A DNA stretch of 43,188 nucleotides from a virus. Below the pieces are notes generated by a model that was given only the letters and a program-made list of their open reading frames with translations, ran no database searches and was not told the origin of the DNA. The position numbers and the translations under genes are program-made. Where the stretch lies: UHGV virus genome UHGV-1381253; one strand, 5' to 3'. Below are positions 6,349-15,058 of this stretch, in pieces. The stretch's first letter is position 1. Every line of letters begins with the position of its first letter.

Positions 6349-6417
6349 TCAATCTCACTCCTTCACTAGCTTTCTGTTTTAATTATAGCATAGATATTAG
6401 AAGTTGTGGGCTTTAAA

Positions 6418-6975
6418 TTACAAGCCCAACAGCTCCAATTCAACTTCTAAGCGTTGTTTCTCTAATTCATTAACAGCTTCTTCTAATGAGCGTGTCGCAA
6501 CTCTTACGTCTGTGTCATCGTAGGCTGGAATGGATACTAGAGAAATTTCTAATAATGAACCAATCTTGTTAATTGAACGTTTCATAATGTCTTTACCTTT
6601 TGTCCATTTGTCTTTAGCTACTGTGAAACCAAAGGAGCATTGATTTAAATCACCACGTTTTACAAGTTCCATTGCGTCACGTCCATTACTTGTATCAGGA
6701 AGTACACACCGAAAATGTAAGCCAATGTCATCCACATTCAATTCCAGTGTGCCACTTGATGTGCGTCCCAATAACTTACTAGAGTCATGATCCATAAAAC
6801 AACGTACGTCTGTCAAGTCTACACCTTCTAGTGCTTCTGGTGAAATTGTCTCCACAAATCCACCTAAATTGCGTGATTCTTTATTAAATTTTAGCGCGTA
6901 TCCTTCCACTACATTATCCTCTGTCTTCTCCAGTGTCTGTAGCGCTCTGATTTCCAAGTTCTTCTTCATTAACAT
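6418..6975 (-). CDS. Prohead protease (HK97 family, S78)
   Basis: 185 aa with the MDHDSSKLLGRT... motif. Sits between portal and capsid, with a C-terminal coiled tail. Confidence 0.8.
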   Translation of the reverse strand: MLMKKNLEIRALQTLEKTEDNVVEGYALKFNKESRNLGGFVETISPEALEGVDLTDVRCFMDHDSSKLLGRTSSGTLELNVDDIGLHFRCVLPDTSNGRDAMELVKRGDLNQCSFGFTVAKDKWTKGKDIMKRSINKIGSLLEISLVSIPAYDDTDVRVATRSLEEAVNELEKQRLEVELELLGL

Positions 6976-8391: not shown

Positions 8392-10164
8392 TTAGTATCC
8401 AAAACCAAACTCACCACTATCTAGTAAGTCTTGCAATGTTGGTGCGTCATAATCGTGATATTGAGCGTCACTCATGGCATTTATTATGGCGTCAAGTGAG
8501 TCAATTTTATTCCTGTTTATTTGCTTATCAATTGCAACGCTATCATTGTATTCTTTAATCATTGCATTGTATGCTGCACGATTCAATAAAGGGTTATTGG
8601 TGTGCATTACTTCACCTCTACGAATTAACTCACGCAGGGCTCTGGTTGGTGAAGATAAATAGTTAATTTTCTGTGGTACTTCAATTAGTTTTTTAGGGTA
8701 GGTTTTACTTAGATTAATCAAAGCCTTATCCATCATAAATGGATCATAATAAATACCAACCAATTGTAAGTCATTATAATCTATGAAATCACGTATCCAA
8801 TCACACATTTCTTCTGTATCAATTAAGCCATCTTCACGTTGTGAGATGTGAATGAGGTTCATTGCCTCATACTGTCTATAGGGTATTTTATCAATTGATT
8901 GTTTATGGTCTATACCTCCAACTGAAGACACAAAACCATGTGTATCTAATAATAGTTTGTGTTCTTCTTCTATTGGGATAATCCATGAAACGGCTGTCAT
9001 ATCTGATGTTCTTGCTAAGTCAATGCCAATATATACTTTTCTACCCTTAATATTATAATGATTGGGTGCTTTGACGGAATCCCACTCTTCTTTGGTTACA
9101 AAACTATCTTTAGATGATTGTACCCAAAAATTCATTTCTTTCGTTAACCAACCTGATAAATCCATTTTACCCTTGTATTCATCAAGTGAGTTGCGTTTAT
9201 GTTCCATCATTGAGTCGTATGCTTCTGGTATTTCAAACAGTGGGTTTGATTTAATCCAATTTTCTTCGTCATCTACTTCTGATAGACTATCCATTTCCCA
9301 GCAAAGAGCCAAATAAGCGTCACCTTTAACCTCTTCATTAAGTAATTTTTCAACGAATGGATATTCTACAGAGTGCATAGGCCCAGTTAGGTTTTTAGTA
9401 GTTGTTGAAATTATTAGTATTAATCCCTCTAATTGTTGAGATTGAGAGGATTCTAATACTTGAATAATTGCGTCATCTTTAGCTTCACCATATTCATCTA
9501 AAATACCGCATAATACATCTAGTCCATCAAGTGTATCAGCGTCACTTGATAGTGGTTTTACTGTTGATTCATCACTAGCTTCAATATCATATCTACGAAC
9601 AGTTGTTCTTTTTTTAACTTCTTTTGACACACTACGTAACGCAGTTAGCTGTGATTTGAGCATTCTGAAAACGATTCCTGCTTGCTCTTTTGTGTTTGCT
9701 GCTGCAACAACTTGACGACTGGCTGCTGGATTCTTACCAAACAAAAACTCATATAGTGCTATCCCTGAAACCAGTAACGACTTACCATTTTTACGTGCTA
9801 GTGAGATGTATGCTTTTCTAAAGCGTCTAGTATTATCTTTCTTTTTACGCCATCCATAGAGTAACCCAACAATAAATTTCTGAAAGTGGGCTAGTGTTGT
9901 GGTTTTGCGAGACTTAGGATCTGGAAGCATTTCAAGAAATCTAACTGGCGGTATTGCTTCCTCTGCCCTATAAATATATGGATATTTAGGGTCTTTTGAG
10001 CGTTCAATATCCTTCTGATGTCTTTCAATGGCTTTCTGTATTTTTTTACCAACTTTGATTTTAACTTTAATCGGTTTATAATAATCATCTTCTACTATAT
10101 ATTTACGTCCTTCAATCCATCCTGTTTCAATCAGATTGATATAATCTTGTACAAAGTCTTCCAT
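8392..10164 (-). CDS. terL: Terminase large subunit
   Basis: 590 aa. Walker A RKNGKS with the N-terminal ATPase domain, and a C-terminal nuclease region. Confidence 0.9.
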   Translation of the reverse strand: MEDFVQDYINLIETGWIEGRKYIVEDDYYKPIKVKIKVGKKIQKAIERHQKDIERSKDPKYPYIYRAEEAIPPVRFLEMLPDPKSRKTTTLAHFQKFIVGLLYGWRKKKDNTRRFRKAYISLARKNGKSLLVSGIALYEFLFGKNPAASRQVVAAANTKEQAGIVFRMLKSQLTALRSVSKEVKKRTTVRRYDIEASDESTVKPLSSDADTLDGLDVLCGILDEYGEAKDDAIIQVLESSQSQQLEGLILIISTTTKNLTGPMHSVEYPFVEKLLNEEVKGDAYLALCWEMDSLSEVDDEENWIKSNPLFEIPEAYDSMMEHKRNSLDEYKGKMDLSGWLTKEMNFWVQSSKDSFVTKEEWDSVKAPNHYNIKGRKVYIGIDLARTSDMTAVSWIIPIEEEHKLLLDTHGFVSSVGGIDHKQSIDKIPYRQYEAMNLIHISQREDGLIDTEEMCDWIRDFIDYNDLQLVGIYYDPFMMDKALINLSKTYPKKLIEVPQKINYLSSPTRALRELIRRGEVMHTNNPLLNRAAYNAMIKEYNDSVAIDKQINRNKIDSLDAIINAMSDAQYHDYDAPTLQDLLDSGEFGFGY

Positions 10165-10196
10165 TTATGTATCCTCCTTTTATACTATTCAATTAC

Positions 10197-10207
10197 ATTA
10201 TAGCATA
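10197..10207 (-). promoter_or_regulatory. Extended -10 promoter (TGcTATAAT) for terL, overlapping the upstream terminator U-tract
   Basis: Minus-strand sequence ttttttaTGCTATAATgtaattgaatagtataaaaggaggatacataaATG. Confidence 0.3.
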
Positions 10208-10239
10208 AAAAAGACTCCCTAGTTAGCTAGACTAGGGAG
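10205..10239 (-). terminator. Rho-independent terminator on the minus strand at the 3-prime end of the structured region
   Basis: Perfect 9-bp stem ctccctagt/actagggag with a 7-nt loop. It is followed on the minus strand by tcttttttat. Confidence 0.55.
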
Positions 10240-10299
10240 GTGTTAGTATCTGCTAGTATCCACGCCCTACGTTAAGTGGATACTAGCTTTATGTGTGCA

Positions 10300-10428
10300 C
10301 GTCATCAAATAGGGTCATACTATCACACTCTGCGCCAGATACTGTGGCGTGCGGTCGTTTACGTGCGCCGTTCACGACTGTTCAGTTTCCAACAGCAACC
10401 CTTTTTAACGTGGAGTGTGGTGAACCAC
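10300..10428. repeat. Copy A of the internal duplication inside the structured region
   Basis: Shares gtcatactatcac, ggtcgtttacgtgcgccgt, cacgactgttca and acagcaaccctttttaacgtggagtgtggtgaaccac with copy B. Confidence 0.8.
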
Positions 10429-10558
10429 GATTGCTCGCTGACGGTTAAGGTTTCCAACTCCGTCACAGTGCAAAGTATGGATACCGTCCCATACAGACCA
10501 ACGCTAGGCTAACCCGCCTGCGGGGGGACGTGAGTGACTAACTGCTTTGTCGTGCTTG

Positions 10559-10699
10559 TCGTCAAAGAGGGTCATACTATCACGCATTCGCTAGACACTA
10601 TAGCGAGCGGTCGTTTACGTGCGCCGTCCACGACTGTTCATTGGATATACAATGATATCCTAACAGCAACCCTTTTTATCGTGGAGTGTGGTGAACCAC
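10559..10699. repeat. Copy B of the internal duplication inside the structured region
   Basis: See copy A. One stem differs by a compensatory pair: cgcca/tggcg in A against cgcta/tagcg in B. Confidence 0.8.
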
Positions 10700-11025
10700 T
10701 GTGTGGTGTCCTACCTGGACAGATTCAGTATCAGGACTATGACGAGATAGCCAACGTTTCCTCTTAGGAGCTAAGGTTTCCAACTCTCCTAACGGTTGTT
10801 ACCCATAAGGTACTGACTGGAGTCAACGCTCTAAGTCGCAGCCAACGTTTTGTGTATGTCATTCTTTGAGGAATAAGAAATATACACTACCTTATATGTA
10901 CCGCTGTGAGCTAAGGTTTCCAACTCTCACACCGTTACTCATCAGAGTAAGTTTTAGCATCCCTCGCTTGCGGTGTCACGAGAGGTATTTTGTATGCCAC
11001 CTAACGCGAGTGAATAAATTATAAT

Positions 11026-12045
11026 TTAAAACTCACGTACCATAAACAACTTTTCGCACTTCTTGCCAACGTTAGCTCCTTGCATTGTAGATACCACGTT
11101 ATCAAAAGAATAAACACATTTGAATCTTTTATCTGATATCTCATAACTGCTTATGATAACCACGTTATCCTTAGCCATTTCATATGCCCAATCATAAAAT
11201 TCTTGGCTGTTGAACGATACACCGTAGGCATCGTGTGTATTTTCATATGGCGGGTCAAGATATAGAATAGCGTCTTTGACGTAAGAAAAGTCTTGATAAC
11301 TTAGGTTAGTTATAACTAGTTGTTCTAGTCGCTCTAGTCGCTCTACTTGGTGTAGCGGCTCTAGTTGCTTTAGTCGCCCTAGTTGCTGTAGTATCCTATG
11401 TTTCTCTGGTTTATCCTTAAAATCGGCAAAGTCATTGTTCTGGTTAGTTACGTTAGTTTTATAAGTTTCGGTTTGTTTATATCCGCTAAATACATCATGT
11501 TTTGCTATGATTTCTTTAGCTAAATTGTATTTTAATTCAGAATTTTGTTTTGAATATAGATAACCGCTACTATTATTTCCAAAACTGTTTATCAATAATT
11601 TTAAGTTGTCCGTGACGGTTTTTATTGCTTTTTCCTTAATCTCATAAAACTCATCACGGCTTATGATAAGGGTTTTAAGATAATCTCTATCGCTTTCTAG
11701 CACTTTGGTGAACATATCCGTTACATTCTTGTTTATATCGTTGTAATTGACTTCTAAGCCTTGTAACAAACACTCAGCAGTTATAGCCCCGCCGCCACCG
11801 AAGATGTCGTAAATTGTTTTGTCTGTTCCAAAGTTATCTTTGATAATTTGCACGATTTTCTTACTGATTTTCTTTTTTGAACCCACGTATGGAAGACCAA
11901 GAGCCTTACCTTTACGGACTGCTTTTTCGTTTAACTCTAGCAAAAAGTTGCCACCTCTCTTTTCCTTAATTGAAACAGTCAATCTGTTAATTATTATATC
12001 ACAAAATCCGACTTTTGTGATAATGGTGTATCTAATGTTTACCAC
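11026..12045 (-). CDS. DNA N6-adenine methyltransferase (Dam-like, D12 class)
   Basis: Motif X LPYVGSKKKISKKI, motif I DIFGGGGAI, motif IV YLDPPY, and the C-terminal VVIISSYE block. Located between terS and terL. Confidence 0.8.
   Translation of the reverse strand: MVNIRYTIITKVGFCDIIINRLTVSIKEKRGGNFLLELNEKAVRKGKALGLPYVGSKKKISKKIVQIIKDNFGTDKTIYDIFGGGGAITAECLLQGLEVNYNDINKNVTDMFTKVLESDRDYLKTLIISRDEFYEIKEKAIKTVTDNLKLLINSFGNNSSGYLYSKQNSELKYNLAKEIIAKHDVFSGYKQTETYKTNVTNQNNDFADFKDKPEKHRILQQLGRLKQLEPLHQVERLERLEQLVITNLSYQDFSYVKDAILYLDPPYENTHDAYGVSFNSQEFYDWAYEMAKDNVVIISSYEISDKRFKCVYSFDNVVSTMQGANVGKKCEKLFMVREF
11326..11406. repeat. In-frame tandem repeat, 9 bp x 9 units, inside the MTase TRD
   Basis: Units: ctagttgtt ctagtcgct ctagtcgct ctacttggt gtagcggct ctagttgct ttagtcgcc ctagttgct gtagtatcc. 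On the coding strand it encodes ILQ-QLG-RLK-QLE-PLH-QVE-RLE-RLE-QLV. Confidence 0.85.
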
Positions 12046-12091
12046 TCATTTGCTATAAATAGTATATCATAAACGTTTAGTTTAGTGTAGG

Positions 12092-12556
12092 TTATCCTTC
12101 AAACATTTTTGCGAATGGGTCAAGTACCTCTTTTTCTTTCTCTGCTGGAAGAATAATCTTCATTCTTGAATTGATTGTTAATCCCAGGTCATTGGTTGCC
12201 GTTTTAAGCTCTTTTGAATAGGAGTTCATGGCATTAACCCAAGGGTTTGCTTTACCTGTCTCAGGATCAATTGCGCCCATCTGTGCTACCTTCTCTACTG
12301 CTTCAGCGTATAGATAATTATAGTTACAATATCTAATGACTGTATTCACATCTAACTCACTAATAGGCAAGTCTCCTACATATGCTCCAATGCGATCCCA
12401 TTCATTAAAGGCTTGTGGCAATAAACCTGGTGGATAAAAACTGAAGTCTAGCTTCTCATAATTGTAAAGTACTTCTTCCTCCTTCTCACGCTCTTCTCGT
12501 TGCTGAGTGGTCAAGTTACCACTTTGAGCGTTTAATAATTTCCGTGGTCTTGCCAT
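12092..12556 (-). CDS. terS: Terminase small subunit (P27-family-like)
   Basis: 154 aa, immediately upstream of the packaging genes. N-terminal basic region and a typical TerS size. An HNH endonuclease and candidate cos region lie upstream. Confidence 0.7.
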   Translation of the reverse strand: MARPRKLLNAQSGNLTTQQREEREKEEEVLYNYEKLDFSFYPPGLLPQAFNEWDRIGAYVGDLPISELDVNTVIRYCNYNYLYAEAVEKVAQMGAIDPETGKANPWVNAMNSYSKELKTATNDLGLTINSRMKIILPAEKEKEVLDPFAKMFEG

Positions 12557-12560
12557 GTTA

Positions 12561-12851
12561 TCACTCCTCCTTTGGTGCTTCTGTTTTTGTTAAAGTCCAT
12601 GTGTTTGTTTGGTAGTTCATGTGTAGGTTAAACCATTGTAGTAGGTCGTCACTATAACTAAACTCACTAGCTACTAGTGCTTCTAATGTGTGATGTTCAC
12701 CATGAACTCCTGAGGTTACGTAACTCTCTTCCATTTGATATACGTAGTAGACTTTGTCATTAATCATGAATTGTGGAGCTTGGGTTGCGCCTTCAACTCT
12801 TTGCACATATGTGCGATACTCTGTTTTGATAGTACCTTTTAAATTTTTCAT
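12561..12851 (-). CDS. Hypothetical protein (96 aa; start placed at MKNLKG with an AAAGGAGGA RBS)
   Basis: The ORF track gives 12561-12884. The internal ATG at 12851 has a strong RBS and overlaps the upstream stop. The protein ends TEAPKEE. Confidence 0.5.
   Translation of the reverse strand: MKNLKGTIKTEYRTYVQRVEGATQAPQFMINDKVYYVYQMEESYVTSGVHGEHHTLEALVASEFSYSDDLLQWFNLHMNYQTNTWTLTKTEAPKEE
12565..12584. repeat. 20-bp exact direct repeat, copy 1 (tcctcctttggtgcttctgt)
   Basis: Identical to 12857-12876. On the minus strand it encodes the C-terminal ...EAPKEE and doubles as the SD for the next gene. Confidence 0.85.
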
Positions 12852-12852
12852 T

Positions 12853-13035
12853 TTAATCCTCCTTTGGTGCTTCTGTAATTTCAAAATGACGATTACGTCC
12901 GCCTAATTTTGTTTTAACGTCCTTAAAATAGCCACGCTTCTTTCCATAAAATTCATCTGCTTGAAATTGTGATTTGAATTTACGTGTTTGTCCAGTCGCC
13001 AAATCTTTTACGTACACAGGTTTTGGTGCAGGCAT
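12853..13035 (-). CDS. Hypothetical basic protein (60 aa)
   Basis: GGGAGG RBS. Ends TEAPKED. First gene after the candidate late promoter. Confidence 0.5.
   Translation of the reverse strand: MPAPKPVYVKDLATGQTRKFKSQFQADEFYGKKRGYFKDVKTKLGGRNRHFEITEAPKED
12857..12876. repeat. 20-bp exact direct repeat, copy 2
   Basis: Identical to 12565-12584. Confidence 0.85.
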
Positions 13036-13140: not shown

Positions 13141-13393
13141 GGTGTCTAATGGGGGATAAATCATATTAGGGAAATAACATACTATATATAGTATGAGTCC
13201 TTTATTTTCAATACAAGAAACCAGTTTTAAATCACGTTTACGAGGGGAAAAGGGTGTTTTTGAAAGTTCATTTTTAGAATTTCGTGCGAAGAAGAGGGGG
13301 CAGCGATTAATTCGTTATAAAAAGGCGGGCGGGTAAAAACATTTTGGGTCTCCCTAAAATAATTTTGGCTGCGTGGCTGTTGATATGACGCTG
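13141..13393. other. Candidate cos / packaging-recognition region
   Basis: Non-coding stretch between the HNH endonuclease and the terS-proximal genes. GC-rich runs: gagggggcagcg, aaaggcgggcgggtaaaaac, gggtctccc. Perfect 18-bp palindrome catactatatatagtatg at 13178-13195. The HNH-cos-TerS arrangement is typical of cos phages. Confidence 0.2.
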
Positions 13394-13777
13394 TTACCTA
13401 CCTCTATTTTTCCAACTGTAGTTGTGTTCTTCCTTGTTGTGACACTCGTAACATATTGATTCTAAGTTATTTAATTCAAGTCTATGTTTCCATCCATTTG
13501 GACTTCTTAATTCTATCTTATGGTGAACCATATTAGCGTTGGTATACTTGCCTTGTGCTAAGCATACCTCACAGAGTGGTTGCTCCATTAGCTTGGCTCT
13601 ACGTGCATTCCTCCATTGTGTTGAATGATAGAACTCACTGTACTTCTTATTGCTATCATTGTATCTCACATGCTTATTGTATTGGCTATTGTTATACCCA
13701 CTATGCTCCGTACAATAGCGCTCTGGTAGCGTGACATAGTTGCGGCATGAAGCCACTGCACACTTGCGTTGTCTCAT
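13394..13777 (-). CDS. HNH endonuclease (terminase-associated type)
   Basis: C-terminal CEVC...HHKIELRSPNGW...NNLESICYECHNKEEH matches the HNH motif, and the N-terminus carries a CxxC...YCxxH zinc ribbon. Confidence 0.85.
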   Translation of the reverse strand: MRQRKCAVASCRNYVTLPERYCTEHSGYNNSQYNKHVRYNDSNKKYSEFYHSTQWRNARRAKLMEQPLCEVCLAQGKYTNANMVHHKIELRSPNGWKHRLELNNLESICYECHNKEEHNYSWKNRGR

Positions 13778-14584: not shown

Positions 14585-15058
14585 TATATCTCCTCCTCTT
14601 TGTTTCTATTATATCATAGATGAGGGATACTGTGTGAGTTAAGTAAGCCAGTTATTAATGACAAAAAGTCAGCCTAAAATGGTCATTTTGTCACTAAATC
14701 GCTTGTTTTTGTCAGCGTTTTGTCATTAATTTTGACACCTAAAAACGCTGTAAACCTTGATAAATCTACATTCTTATTTTTATAATGACAAAATGACAAA
14801 ATATTATATATATAAAAAAATAAATTGTAATACTACATTATAATGTAGTAACATAGATATATGGGTTGGAATAAATTATTTTTTGTCATTGCGTCATTTT
14901 GCTAAAACTGGTCTCATAAACGTTGATATAATAGTATTCTTGTTGTAAAAACTAGTGACAAAATTAATGTCACTGTTTTGTCACTAGTTGAATTAAATAG
15001 TTGACAGTTACCTCAATAGATGATAAAATTGGTTTATACATAAGAAGGAGGAATTAAC
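14585..15058. promoter_or_regulatory. Divergent control region with about 10 copies of TGACAAAA/TTTTGTCA iterons and a 20-bp perfect palindrome. Candidate operator array and/or replication origin.
   Basis: Motifs at about 14659, 14687, 14705, 14718, 14731, 14785-14802 (tandem atgacaaaatgacaaaat), 14881-14900 and 14954-14990 (agtgacaaaattaatgtcactgttttgtcact). Palindrome tactacattataatgtagta at 14831-14850. Very AT-rich. Confidence 0.5.
15001..15029 (+). promoter_or_regulatory. Early rightward promoter TTGACA-17-TAAAAT with an extended TG
   Basis: ttgaca gttacctcaatagatga taaaat, followed by the conserved leader cataagaaggagg and an ATG at 15059. Confidence 0.6.

Follow-up and report, generated by a model that had tools for sequence, protein, structure and literature searches.

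Why should two nearby stretches of a phage genome resemble each other closely in their nucleotides while being unable to share a reading frame? The question is raised by the viral genome UHGV-1381253 (43,188 nucleotides (nt), the whole of which we call the window), in which an imperfect repeat, with copies termed A and B, lies between the genes for a DNA methylase and the large terminase TerL, inside an 861-nt gap (10165-11025) that is free of open reading frames (ORFs) but for the short ones discussed below. An earlier note, made from the letters alone, had read it as a tandemly duplicated RNA domain. Our analysis supports that interpretation in its essentials and refines it in four respects, of which the truncation of copy B and the origin of the tandem are taken up below. 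The repeat is almost certainly a structured non-coding RNA read from the minus strand, opposite to the strand used in the note, and the functional domain reaches beyond the coordinates first quoted for it, to 10245, the extension consisting of a long hairpin and two pseudoknot partners that are present in copy A only.

A global alignment of copy A (over 10295-10429) with copy B (10552-10700) has 118 matching, 15 mismatched and 18 gapped columns; a single variable hairpin, extended in B and short in A, accounts for 15 of the gaps. Once this 15-nt hairpin indel is set aside the copies are 89% identical, and the blastn E value of 5.7e-30 places their similarity far beyond chance. All three shared blocks reported in the earlier note are found where it placed them, and the repeat stands as described except for its starts, which lie about 5-7 nt before the 10300 and 10559 it had given. 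The blocks, and the hairpin in which the note had seen a compensatory change, are as follows.

10313-10326 (copy A) and 10570-10583 (copy B): first shared block
10353-10384 (copy A) and 10609-10640 (copy B): second shared block
10392-10428 (copy A) and 10663-10699 (copy B): third shared block
10333-10349 (copy A): hairpin, CGCCA-GATACTG-TGGCG in plus-strand letters
10589-10605 (copy B): the same hairpin, CGCTA-GACACTA-TAGCG in plus-strand letters

The offsets between the blocks are 257, 256 and 271 nt (2, 1 and 1 modulo 3), so that a single frame is unable to read both copies alike. The two plus-strand ORFs that the note had regarded as the only ones here (10276-10512 and 10534-10767) do exist and translate in different frames as claimed, but three further ORFs of 35-51 amino acids overlap the region. 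The hairpin loop that the note described as kept has retained its length of 7 nt but differs in sequence at two positions.

Could a small protein, or several, nevertheless be encoded here, as in the annotation of some GenBank records? ORFs of 30-78 amino acids are present on both strands, and depositors of related phages (related loci are given here by L numbers) have annotated across the cassette several 'hypothetical proteins' of 29-37 amino acids (including the 30-residue ones of KEN21, L187) and an ORF of 130 amino acids (KEN18, L191). Against this stands the comparison of 28 distinct core sequences, assembled from TerL-anchored IMG/VR loci, GenBank phage records and three additional metagenome contigs. 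Every frame, on either strand, meets a stop in at least one of the 28, the best being open in 10. Indels within the most conserved part are of 1-2 nt and would shift any frame, core lengths ranging from 114 to 117 nt. The variable columns are spread evenly over the codon phases (22/39, 20/39 and 24/38), such that a codon-periodicity check of the kind proposed in the note returns no three-base signal, and the two copies cannot in any case share a frame. The conserved protein frame by which the note's non-coding reading would fall was thus looked for in the homologue alignment and none was seen. We give the small-protein alternative next to no credence, and on the frame analysis the KEN21 and KEN18 annotations are probably over-calls.

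What is conserved instead is a fold. Read on the terL strand, the core of about 190 nt comprises helix Pc (CGUG-N7-CACG), an A-rich linker, Pb (CGCCA-CAGUAUC-UGGCG), Pd (AGUGUG...CACACU), Pe (a 12-bp hairpin with the loop UUAACGUAGGGC), the box CAGAUACU and a terminator, with five helices and two pseudoknots across the 28 sequences. In the first pseudoknot (PK1) the Pb loop AGUAUC pairs with GAUACU of the box, and the second (PK2) links the Pd and Pe loops through CCCUAC of the former and GUAGGG of the latter, the general form being CCCUAY/RUAGGG. In the window these elements map as listed.

10245-10429, minus strand: copy A, the complete domain (full-length nhmmer match and covariation)
10395-10428, minus: copy A, 5' module
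10378-10395, minus: copy A, helix Hb
10362-10376, minus: copy A, Pc
10333-10349, minus: copy A, Pb
10324-10329 with 10292-10297, minus: copy A, Pd
10252-10287, minus: copy A, Pe
10338-10343 with 10245-10250, minus: copy A, PK1, Pb loop with the box GAUACU
10309-10314 with 10265-10270, minus: copy A, PK2, CCCUAU with GUAGGG in the Pe loop
10532-10700, minus: copy B, a truncated domain (nhmmer and alignment)
10666-10699, minus: copy B, 5' module (hairpin and A-rich tail)
10634-10666, minus: copy B, Hb with the long insert hairpin
10618-10632, minus: copy B, Pc
10589-10605, minus: copy B, Pb
10577-10585 with 10549-10555, minus: copy B, Pd
10534-10545, minus: copy B, 5' arm of Pe only
10207-10240, minus: intrinsic terminator with a 9-bp G+C-rich stem, the loop UCUAGCUAA and a U-run (terminator scan)

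The structure was counted on alignment A1, with pairing partners slid by 1-3 columns and 500 shuffles serving as controls. Standard pairs occupy 93.0% of the 1337 pair cells, as against 21.6-47.6% with slid partners; 18 pairs change on both sides (1-3 slid), as do 95 individual cells (1-11 slid), and the covariation score is 0.226 (0.029-0.055 slid), values that none of the 500 shuffles attained. PK1 is paired in 168 of 168 cells, eight of which are G-U, and shows a single double change, from A-U to G-C, in L189. In PK2 one covarying pair is A-U in 19 sequences and C-G in 9, a second is C-G in 18, U-A in 7 and U-G in one, and the B-type lineage carries CCCUCU/AGAGGG, a double compensatory change; at a seventh position most sequences have A.C, L010 has G.U and L285 has G-C. 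The compensatory pair singled out in the earlier note holds up as well, being C-G in 20 of the sequences and U-A in the other 8. Further compensatory changes are seen in helix Hb of L016 and in Pc of L008, the terminator stem also covaries (99.6% paired), and RNAalifold independently recovers Pb, Pd, Pe and the terminator. The RNA also keeps invariant single-stranded stretches, UAGUAU, CCCU and UGA-GA among them. A long-range helix of the minimum-free-energy structure, joining the A-rich tail and GGGU of the 5' module to ACCCU of the core, was rejected: the 5' module is missing in many homologues, and the pseudoknot of ACCCU with AGGG is universal and covaries. A candidate helix GGUUG/CGACC closing the 5' module is plausible and resembles a simple hairpin in Enterococcus faecalis phages, though its G-to-A changes in L007, L008 and L036 are uncompensated.

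We read the RNA from the minus strand because of the U-run of the terminator, the conserved promoters described below and the excess of G-U over A-C cells in the alignment (37 versus 10), which favors pairing on that strand. This terminator, the sole terminator-like site of the scan, lies at 10239-10215 followed by the U-run, and it recurs in all 31 cassette sequences, a set that was recovered by means of that very motif.

How, then, did two copies come to stand in tandem? A core profile matches the relatives with nhmmer at E values of 1e-27 to 1e-36 and finds the window twice, at full length over 10245-10360 (E=2.3e-33) and over positions 1-86 of 115 at 10532-10616 (E=2.4e-21). About 30 related phages carry the domain, nearly always as a single copy just upstream of terL. 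Identity between copy A and the lone copy of L036 stands at 93.3%, the same figure as between copy B and its counterpart in BUCT630 (L002), whereas in this comparison A and B share 77.9% identity; because each is closer to the single copy of another lineage, they are two alleles of one domain. The tandem fits an origin by recombination between two related phages. The earlier note's reading of a tandemly duplicated RNA domain is refined accordingly: the duplication itself is an ordinary recombination joint between diverged alleles, rather than an in-place duplication followed by divergence. The metagenome contig L285 (JAFEHB010002225.1, ~6400-6737) has the same order of truncated B, linker and A, with one joint fusing a conserved hairpin loop to helix Hb at a 9-mer, GUUGGAAAC, common to two module types; in its B copy CCCUCU has mutated to CCAUCU. 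Phage KEN21 (vB_Efm8_KEN21) carries a different and independent duplication, its joint lying inside the terminator stem. In the window, copy B ends in the 5' arm of Pe; missing are the loop and 3' arm of that helix, the pseudoknot box and, with these, both pseudoknot partners, as well as a terminator of its own. With GUAGGG, from the single Pe loop available, its CCCUCU would form a poor pairing, and copy B may be decaying or folding differently.

The distribution of the domain is narrow, being confined to Enterococcus phages. The core pattern was absent from 185,579 bacterial and archaeal species genomes searched for host or prophage copies and turned up in just five metagenome contigs. One gammaproteobacterial metagenome-assembled genome was matched by a 19-mer from the 5' module, which we take as chance. 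An IMG/VR scan with a 14-mer of the loop and a 15-mer of the core gave mostly chance matches; with a hairpin-context filter, 13 of the 17 passing matches belong to the Enterococcus phage clade and the other four look like chance.

Beyond the repeat, the gap and its surroundings hold a series of predicted promoters and further RNA modules, which together with the two copies and the terminator make up a cassette.

12061-12069, minus: P1a, an extended -10-like element, TGATATACT, just after the terS stop; relatives have TGNTATAAT or TGNTATACT there
11993-12001, minus: P1b, a predicted extended -10 promoter, TGATATAAT; the RNA modules follow it immediately in relatives, and here the methylase gene is inserted after it
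11018-11023, minus: TATAAT, a possible local promoter of the RNA immediately after the methylase stop, placed relative to the first module as P1b is in relatives
10961-10985, minus: module hairpin CCUCUCG-UGACACCGCAAG-CGAGGG, also in L003, L006, L007, L008, L009, L012, L036 and L285
10905-10931, minus: hairpin 1, conserved loop AGUUGGAAACCUUAG, stem UGUGAG/CUCACA
10766-10790, minus: hairpin 2, same loop, stem AGGAG/CUCCU
10475-10524, minus: linker joining copy B to the next module, with hairpins CCCGC-AG-GCGGG (10513-10524) and GUAUGG...CCAUAC (10475-10494); also in L285
10440-10464, minus: hairpin 3, conserved loop AGUUGGAAACCUUAA, stem GACGG/CCGUC
10197-10205, minus: P2, a predicted extended -10 promoter, TGCTATAAT, downstream of the terminator and ahead of the terL ribosome-binding site

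Hairpins 1 to 3 keep an identical loop of 14-15 nt (AGUUGGAAACCUUA), and their stems (GUGAG, GGAG and GACGG) vary among copies and phages. In the relatives the layout is a terS stop, one or two TGNTATAAT motifs, the modules, the terminator, P2 as TGCTATAAT, a ribosome-binding site and terL. With 19 occurrences in the window where 4.5±2.0 are expected, the TGNTATAAT motif is about four-fold enriched; it lies mostly in intergenic gaps and co-oriented with the genes, on which grounds there appears to be a phage-wide set of extended -10 promoters of which P2 would be one of many. Examples are at 1788, 2415, 3086, 6382, 10197, 11993, 13094, 35447, 37990 and 41222 on the minus strand and at 14924, 15951, 22939, 27418 and 32240 on the plus strand. 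A TGATATAAT at 10137-10145 on the plus strand, aimed into the region, was not treated as functional; it falls within the opening codons of terL (D-Y-I-N), is shared by some relatives only and is probably a by-product of the coding sequence. Going by these motifs, the RNA of the window would be either the 3' part of the methylase transcript or a product starting at the TATAAT of 11018-11023.

The content of the cassette is highly variable among the relatives. The gap between the flanking genes measures ~47 nt in L037, 173 nt in L017 and 861 nt in the window, with at least four types of 5' module, and units of a hairpin plus an A-rich tail occur up to four times (in L016). L017 has only ~90 nt between promoter and terminator and keeps the terminator, P2 and terL, and L039 has lost the middle of the core. 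The clade of E. faecalis phages (L019-L042, with TerL 63-66% identical) shows the same layout ~50-600 nt upstream of terL with other modules, a different and equally conserved terminator (GACUUAGG...CCUAAGUC) and, in some members, two promoter-to-terminator units in series; its cassettes have no Rfam match. One of its members, L037, has no modules but retains terminator, P2 and terL. Some modules are common to both clades: the module GCGCCUCUUAACAAUGC, found in L287, L017 and L029 and thus shared by the E. faecium- and E. faecalis-type phages, has covarying arms (UGAGC/GCUCA versus CUAGC/GCUAG). Genes that have been inserted lie downstream of the terminator, namely an HNH nuclease in L010 and Bp29 and a small ORF in L003, L016 and EF36P1. 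A 29-nt insert, CGCUUCACCCACUCUUUAGUGGUGUGUAGAUGAA, stands between the GAUACU box and the terminator in L006, L013, L014, L015, L187 (second copy) and L192 and forms a miniature of the terminator stem; in KEN21 insert and terminator share the same C-to-U and G-to-A changes, which could reflect gene conversion or a functional antiterminator.

The window derives from an E. faecium-type siphophage, and the gap matches 24 INPHARED records, every one of them an Enterococcus phage and most having E. faecium as the host. On the minus strand the order is HNH nuclease, likely cos end, terS, methylase, gap, terL and portal.

13394-13777, minus: HNH nuclease gene
12092-12556, minus: terS (Terminase_4)
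11026-12045, minus: ORF for a D12-class N6-adenine DNA methyltransferase (Dam-like; Pfam PF02086, E=3.5e-12), the true start probably internal
10173-10178, minus: terL ribosome-binding site, AGGAGG
8392-10164, minus: terL (PF03354/PF20441), with its ATG at 10162-10164

Six flanking proteins were scanned, TerS, TerL, the portal, the HNH nuclease and the methylase among them, and one was without a Pfam match. The methylase ORF sits within the unit from P1b to the terminator and was not in the terS-terL gap of any relative inspected; orphan methylases are a classic anti-restriction cargo. The first bases of the IME-EFm1 genome record, like the ends of six or more viral contigs from IMG/VR, align to 13273-13296 (minus strand), which suggests a physical (cos) genome end at ~13296, between the HNH gene and an ORF at 12561-12884.

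What might such an RNA do? Morons are independent promoter-to-terminator units lying between conserved genes of lambdoid phages, and the cassette can be viewed as an accessory RNA gene of this kind, an 'RNA moron' running from its predicted promoter or promoters to its terminator. It has its own downstream terminator, and collinear relatives are polymorphic both for its presence and for its content. The folded RNA would act as a molecule in itself, most likely by binding a host or phage protein, and would affect infection in a host-dependent manner, for example in counter-defence or host range. We consider such a trans-acting accessory role a tentative proposal with somewhat less than an even chance, and the reading as a whole, a structured minus-strand RNA cassette with an accessory role, the best explanation at about evenly balanced chances. 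Several observations weigh against it. The promoters and the terminator are sequence predictions only, and the folding-energy z-scores (-4.5 on the minus and -4.1 on the plus strand) do not discriminate between the strands. The ~30 known sequences are closely related, and most of the covariation separates just two or three lineages, implying a modest number of independent events. A search of the window for antisense targets of the conserved loops gave nothing beyond 9-mers, the terminator directly before terL would also fit regulation in cis, and the swap of the cassette in an evolved hybrid phage, described below, may have been a passenger of recombination rather than a selected change.

The position before terL raises the possibility of a cis-acting leader that controls transcription into that gene, either as an attenuator or riboswitch whose fold decides on the terminator or as a put- or EAR-like RNA conferring read-through on the polymerase from P1. 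The complex conserved fold would suit such a device, as would a GAUACU box ending 5-8 nt before the terminator stem in most sequences, the terminator directly upstream of terL in most relatives, and a succession of promoter, ~200-800-nt RNA, strong terminator and packaging genes that recalls the lambda PR'-tR' layout; the 29-nt insert of six phages could serve as its antiterminator, and in copy b of KEN21 this insert carries the base change of the terminator. However, the conserved promoter P2 intervenes between terminator and terL, and the promoter motif recurs through the structural genes, leaving no single long late operon in need of antitermination. L037 makes do with terminator, P2 and terL alone, other genes part the cassette from terL in L003, L016, L010 and Bp29, and between box and terminator lie anything from 5 to 38 nt. 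The riboswitches and leaders of Rfam give no match to the RNA, and inspection of the common form, short of a systematic search, revealed no pairing that competes with the terminator. As the cassette is variable and separable from terL, an accessory RNA gene fits better; the element is probably not a terL switch, and we regard a leader as unlikely, though it is the chief rival. Could the element be structural only, with no specific partner, its modules being interchangeable stable hairpins that guard the 3' end of a terS or methylase mRNA against exonucleases or insulate the upstream transcription unit from that of terL? The modules do lie at the 3' end of a transcription unit, are freely swapped and sometimes absent, and in the window follow the methylase ORF in the same unit. 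A stabilizer of this sort, for which the terminator hairpin alone would suffice, needs neither two conserved pseudoknots nor invariant single-stranded stretches nor a 15-nt loop that stays constant while its stem changes, and we judge this generic role quite improbable.

An aptamer for a small molecule or a self-cleaving ribozyme of an undescribed class might equally be sought in a compact double-pseudoknot core with many invariant unpaired bases. In particular, the 5' module (a 4-5-bp hairpin starting GGUUC..., then an A-rich tail, UAAAAA, the type of unit that recurs in L016) resembles the H-type pseudoknot of preQ1-I riboswitches, and the PreQ1 model (RF00522) weakly matches 10402-10429 on the minus strand. 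This match scores 15.7 bits against a gathering threshold of 39 (E=2.9 in a 1-kb search), and preQ1-I was rejected. The module, which lies 150-250 nt inside a larger RNA, is the most replaceable portion of the domain, with at least four alternative types (at least three others standing in for it in relatives), and neither a regulated queuosine gene nor any queuosine-related neighbor is found among the six flanking proteins scanned. Apart from it, no ribozyme or riboswitch family comes within E=10 there or reaches its gathering score in 17 related loci. A likeness of CCACGUUAAA(A/U)AG..UUGCU to the pistol ribozyme was not relied on, as no Rfam family besides PreQ1 and NsiR1 reached E=10. An aptamer or ribozyme is accordingly very doubtful. 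The last alternative dispenses with RNA altogether and sees in the repeated motifs and inverted repeats between terS and terL a DNA-level element, be it a cos or pac packaging site, terminase-binding repeats or a recombination site; the region is indeed a demonstrated recombination joint in a hybrid phage, L285 and KEN21. A cos site within the gap was rejected, given that the genome and contig ends noted above fall upstream of terS and outside 10165-11025. Pairing is also maintained through G-U cells on one strand, promoter and terminator bracket the region, and two covarying long-range pseudoknots are not required by DNA-protein sites, leaving the DNA-level reading a remote prospect.

Returning to the accessory RNA cassette, its mobility has a direct illustration. 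Lossouarn et al. (PMC11210271) evolved a phage cocktail with Aramis and dArtagnan and obtained a hybrid, K38.2, that had gained a host; in this phage the exchange had affected precisely the intergenic region considered here. Both parents of K38.2 carry the RNA described here, and the hybrid shows that the cassette moves as a unit. One could go further and picture the terS-terL slot as a site where folded RNA modules, each its own promoter-to-terminator unit, are exchanged, duplicated and shuffled as determinants of host range or counter-defence, acting as decoys or inhibitors against host immunity or host factors, a speculation that we rate as unlikely to hold in full. By analogy with the expansion of pseudo-ToxI, the double-pseudoknot core would then be one such effector and the A+B tandem a product of an arms race, a corollary we hold just as loosely. 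The locus matters in practice, as relatives such as IME-EFm1, IME-EFm5, 9184, Aramis and dArtagnan are therapy candidates against vancomycin-resistant E. faecium, and a hypervariable locus that annotation ignores or mislabels as tiny hypothetical proteins could carry host-specific functions. For RNA biology, it offers a compact fold with good covariation support that lacks a counterpart in Rfam.

How does this RNA compare with known systems? At the gathering threshold, Rfam 15 (4227 models) yields no match in the whole window and none in the 17 related loci (116,616 nt), and at E values up to 10 on 10100-11100 the only matches besides PreQ1 are to NsiR1 (15.3 bits), which covers the terminator alone. 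The repeat copy number of type III toxin-antitoxin RNA arrays and of phage pseudo-ToxI changes by recombination in phages, and there too repeated RNA units are followed by a terminator and a gene. In contrast, the units here are ~150 nt long, imperfect, only two in number and 256-271 nt apart, and the downstream gene encodes TerL rather than a ToxN/AbiQ-type protein. The PR'-6S RNA-tR' region of lambda and the put sites of HK022 are late-gene antitermination modules, and common to them and our cassette is a layout in which a promoter of constitutive appearance, a brief non-coding transcript and a strong terminator stand ahead of packaging and structural genes. They differ in that the cassette has a conserved promoter after the terminator, is dispensable in some relatives and separable from terL, and shows no similarity to these modules in sequence or structure. 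Compared with typical morons, which it resembles in having a terminator of its own, candidate promoters, a location between two conserved essential genes, a presence-absence-swap pattern and a tolerance of extra cargo (here the methylase), it is distinguished by carrying a structured RNA instead of a protein gene and by its one fixed terS-terL slot across two clades. The large, ornate and pseudoknotted ROOL and GOLLD RNAs, whose function is not known, are likewise borne by phages infecting Lactobacillales; the core described here is smaller (~190 nt), is embedded in a shuffled module array and is restricted to Enterococcus phages, with no match to any model of Rfam 15. In genomic position, it comes close to the cabRNA of staphylococcal phages, a transcript of ~400 nt that starts within the terS coding sequence and runs into terL, is unconserved in sequence between phages and is defined by binding and activating the cyclase, the CD-NTase CdnE, of the cyclic-oligonucleotide-based antiphage signaling system (Banh et al. 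2023, PMC10686824). Both are structured RNAs from the terS-terL junction of Firmicute siphophages, this position being their only common feature, and the RNA of the window is unlike cabRNA in forming a non-coding cassette of its own, with a predicted promoter, a terminator and a fold that is conserved and covaries. A catalogue of 8,495 candidate structured RNAs from IMG/VR reports 14 of them upstream of a large-terminase family (PMC10690425), and part of this RNA may already be included there. On these comparisons, it is best placed as a new member of the orphan structured RNAs of phages.

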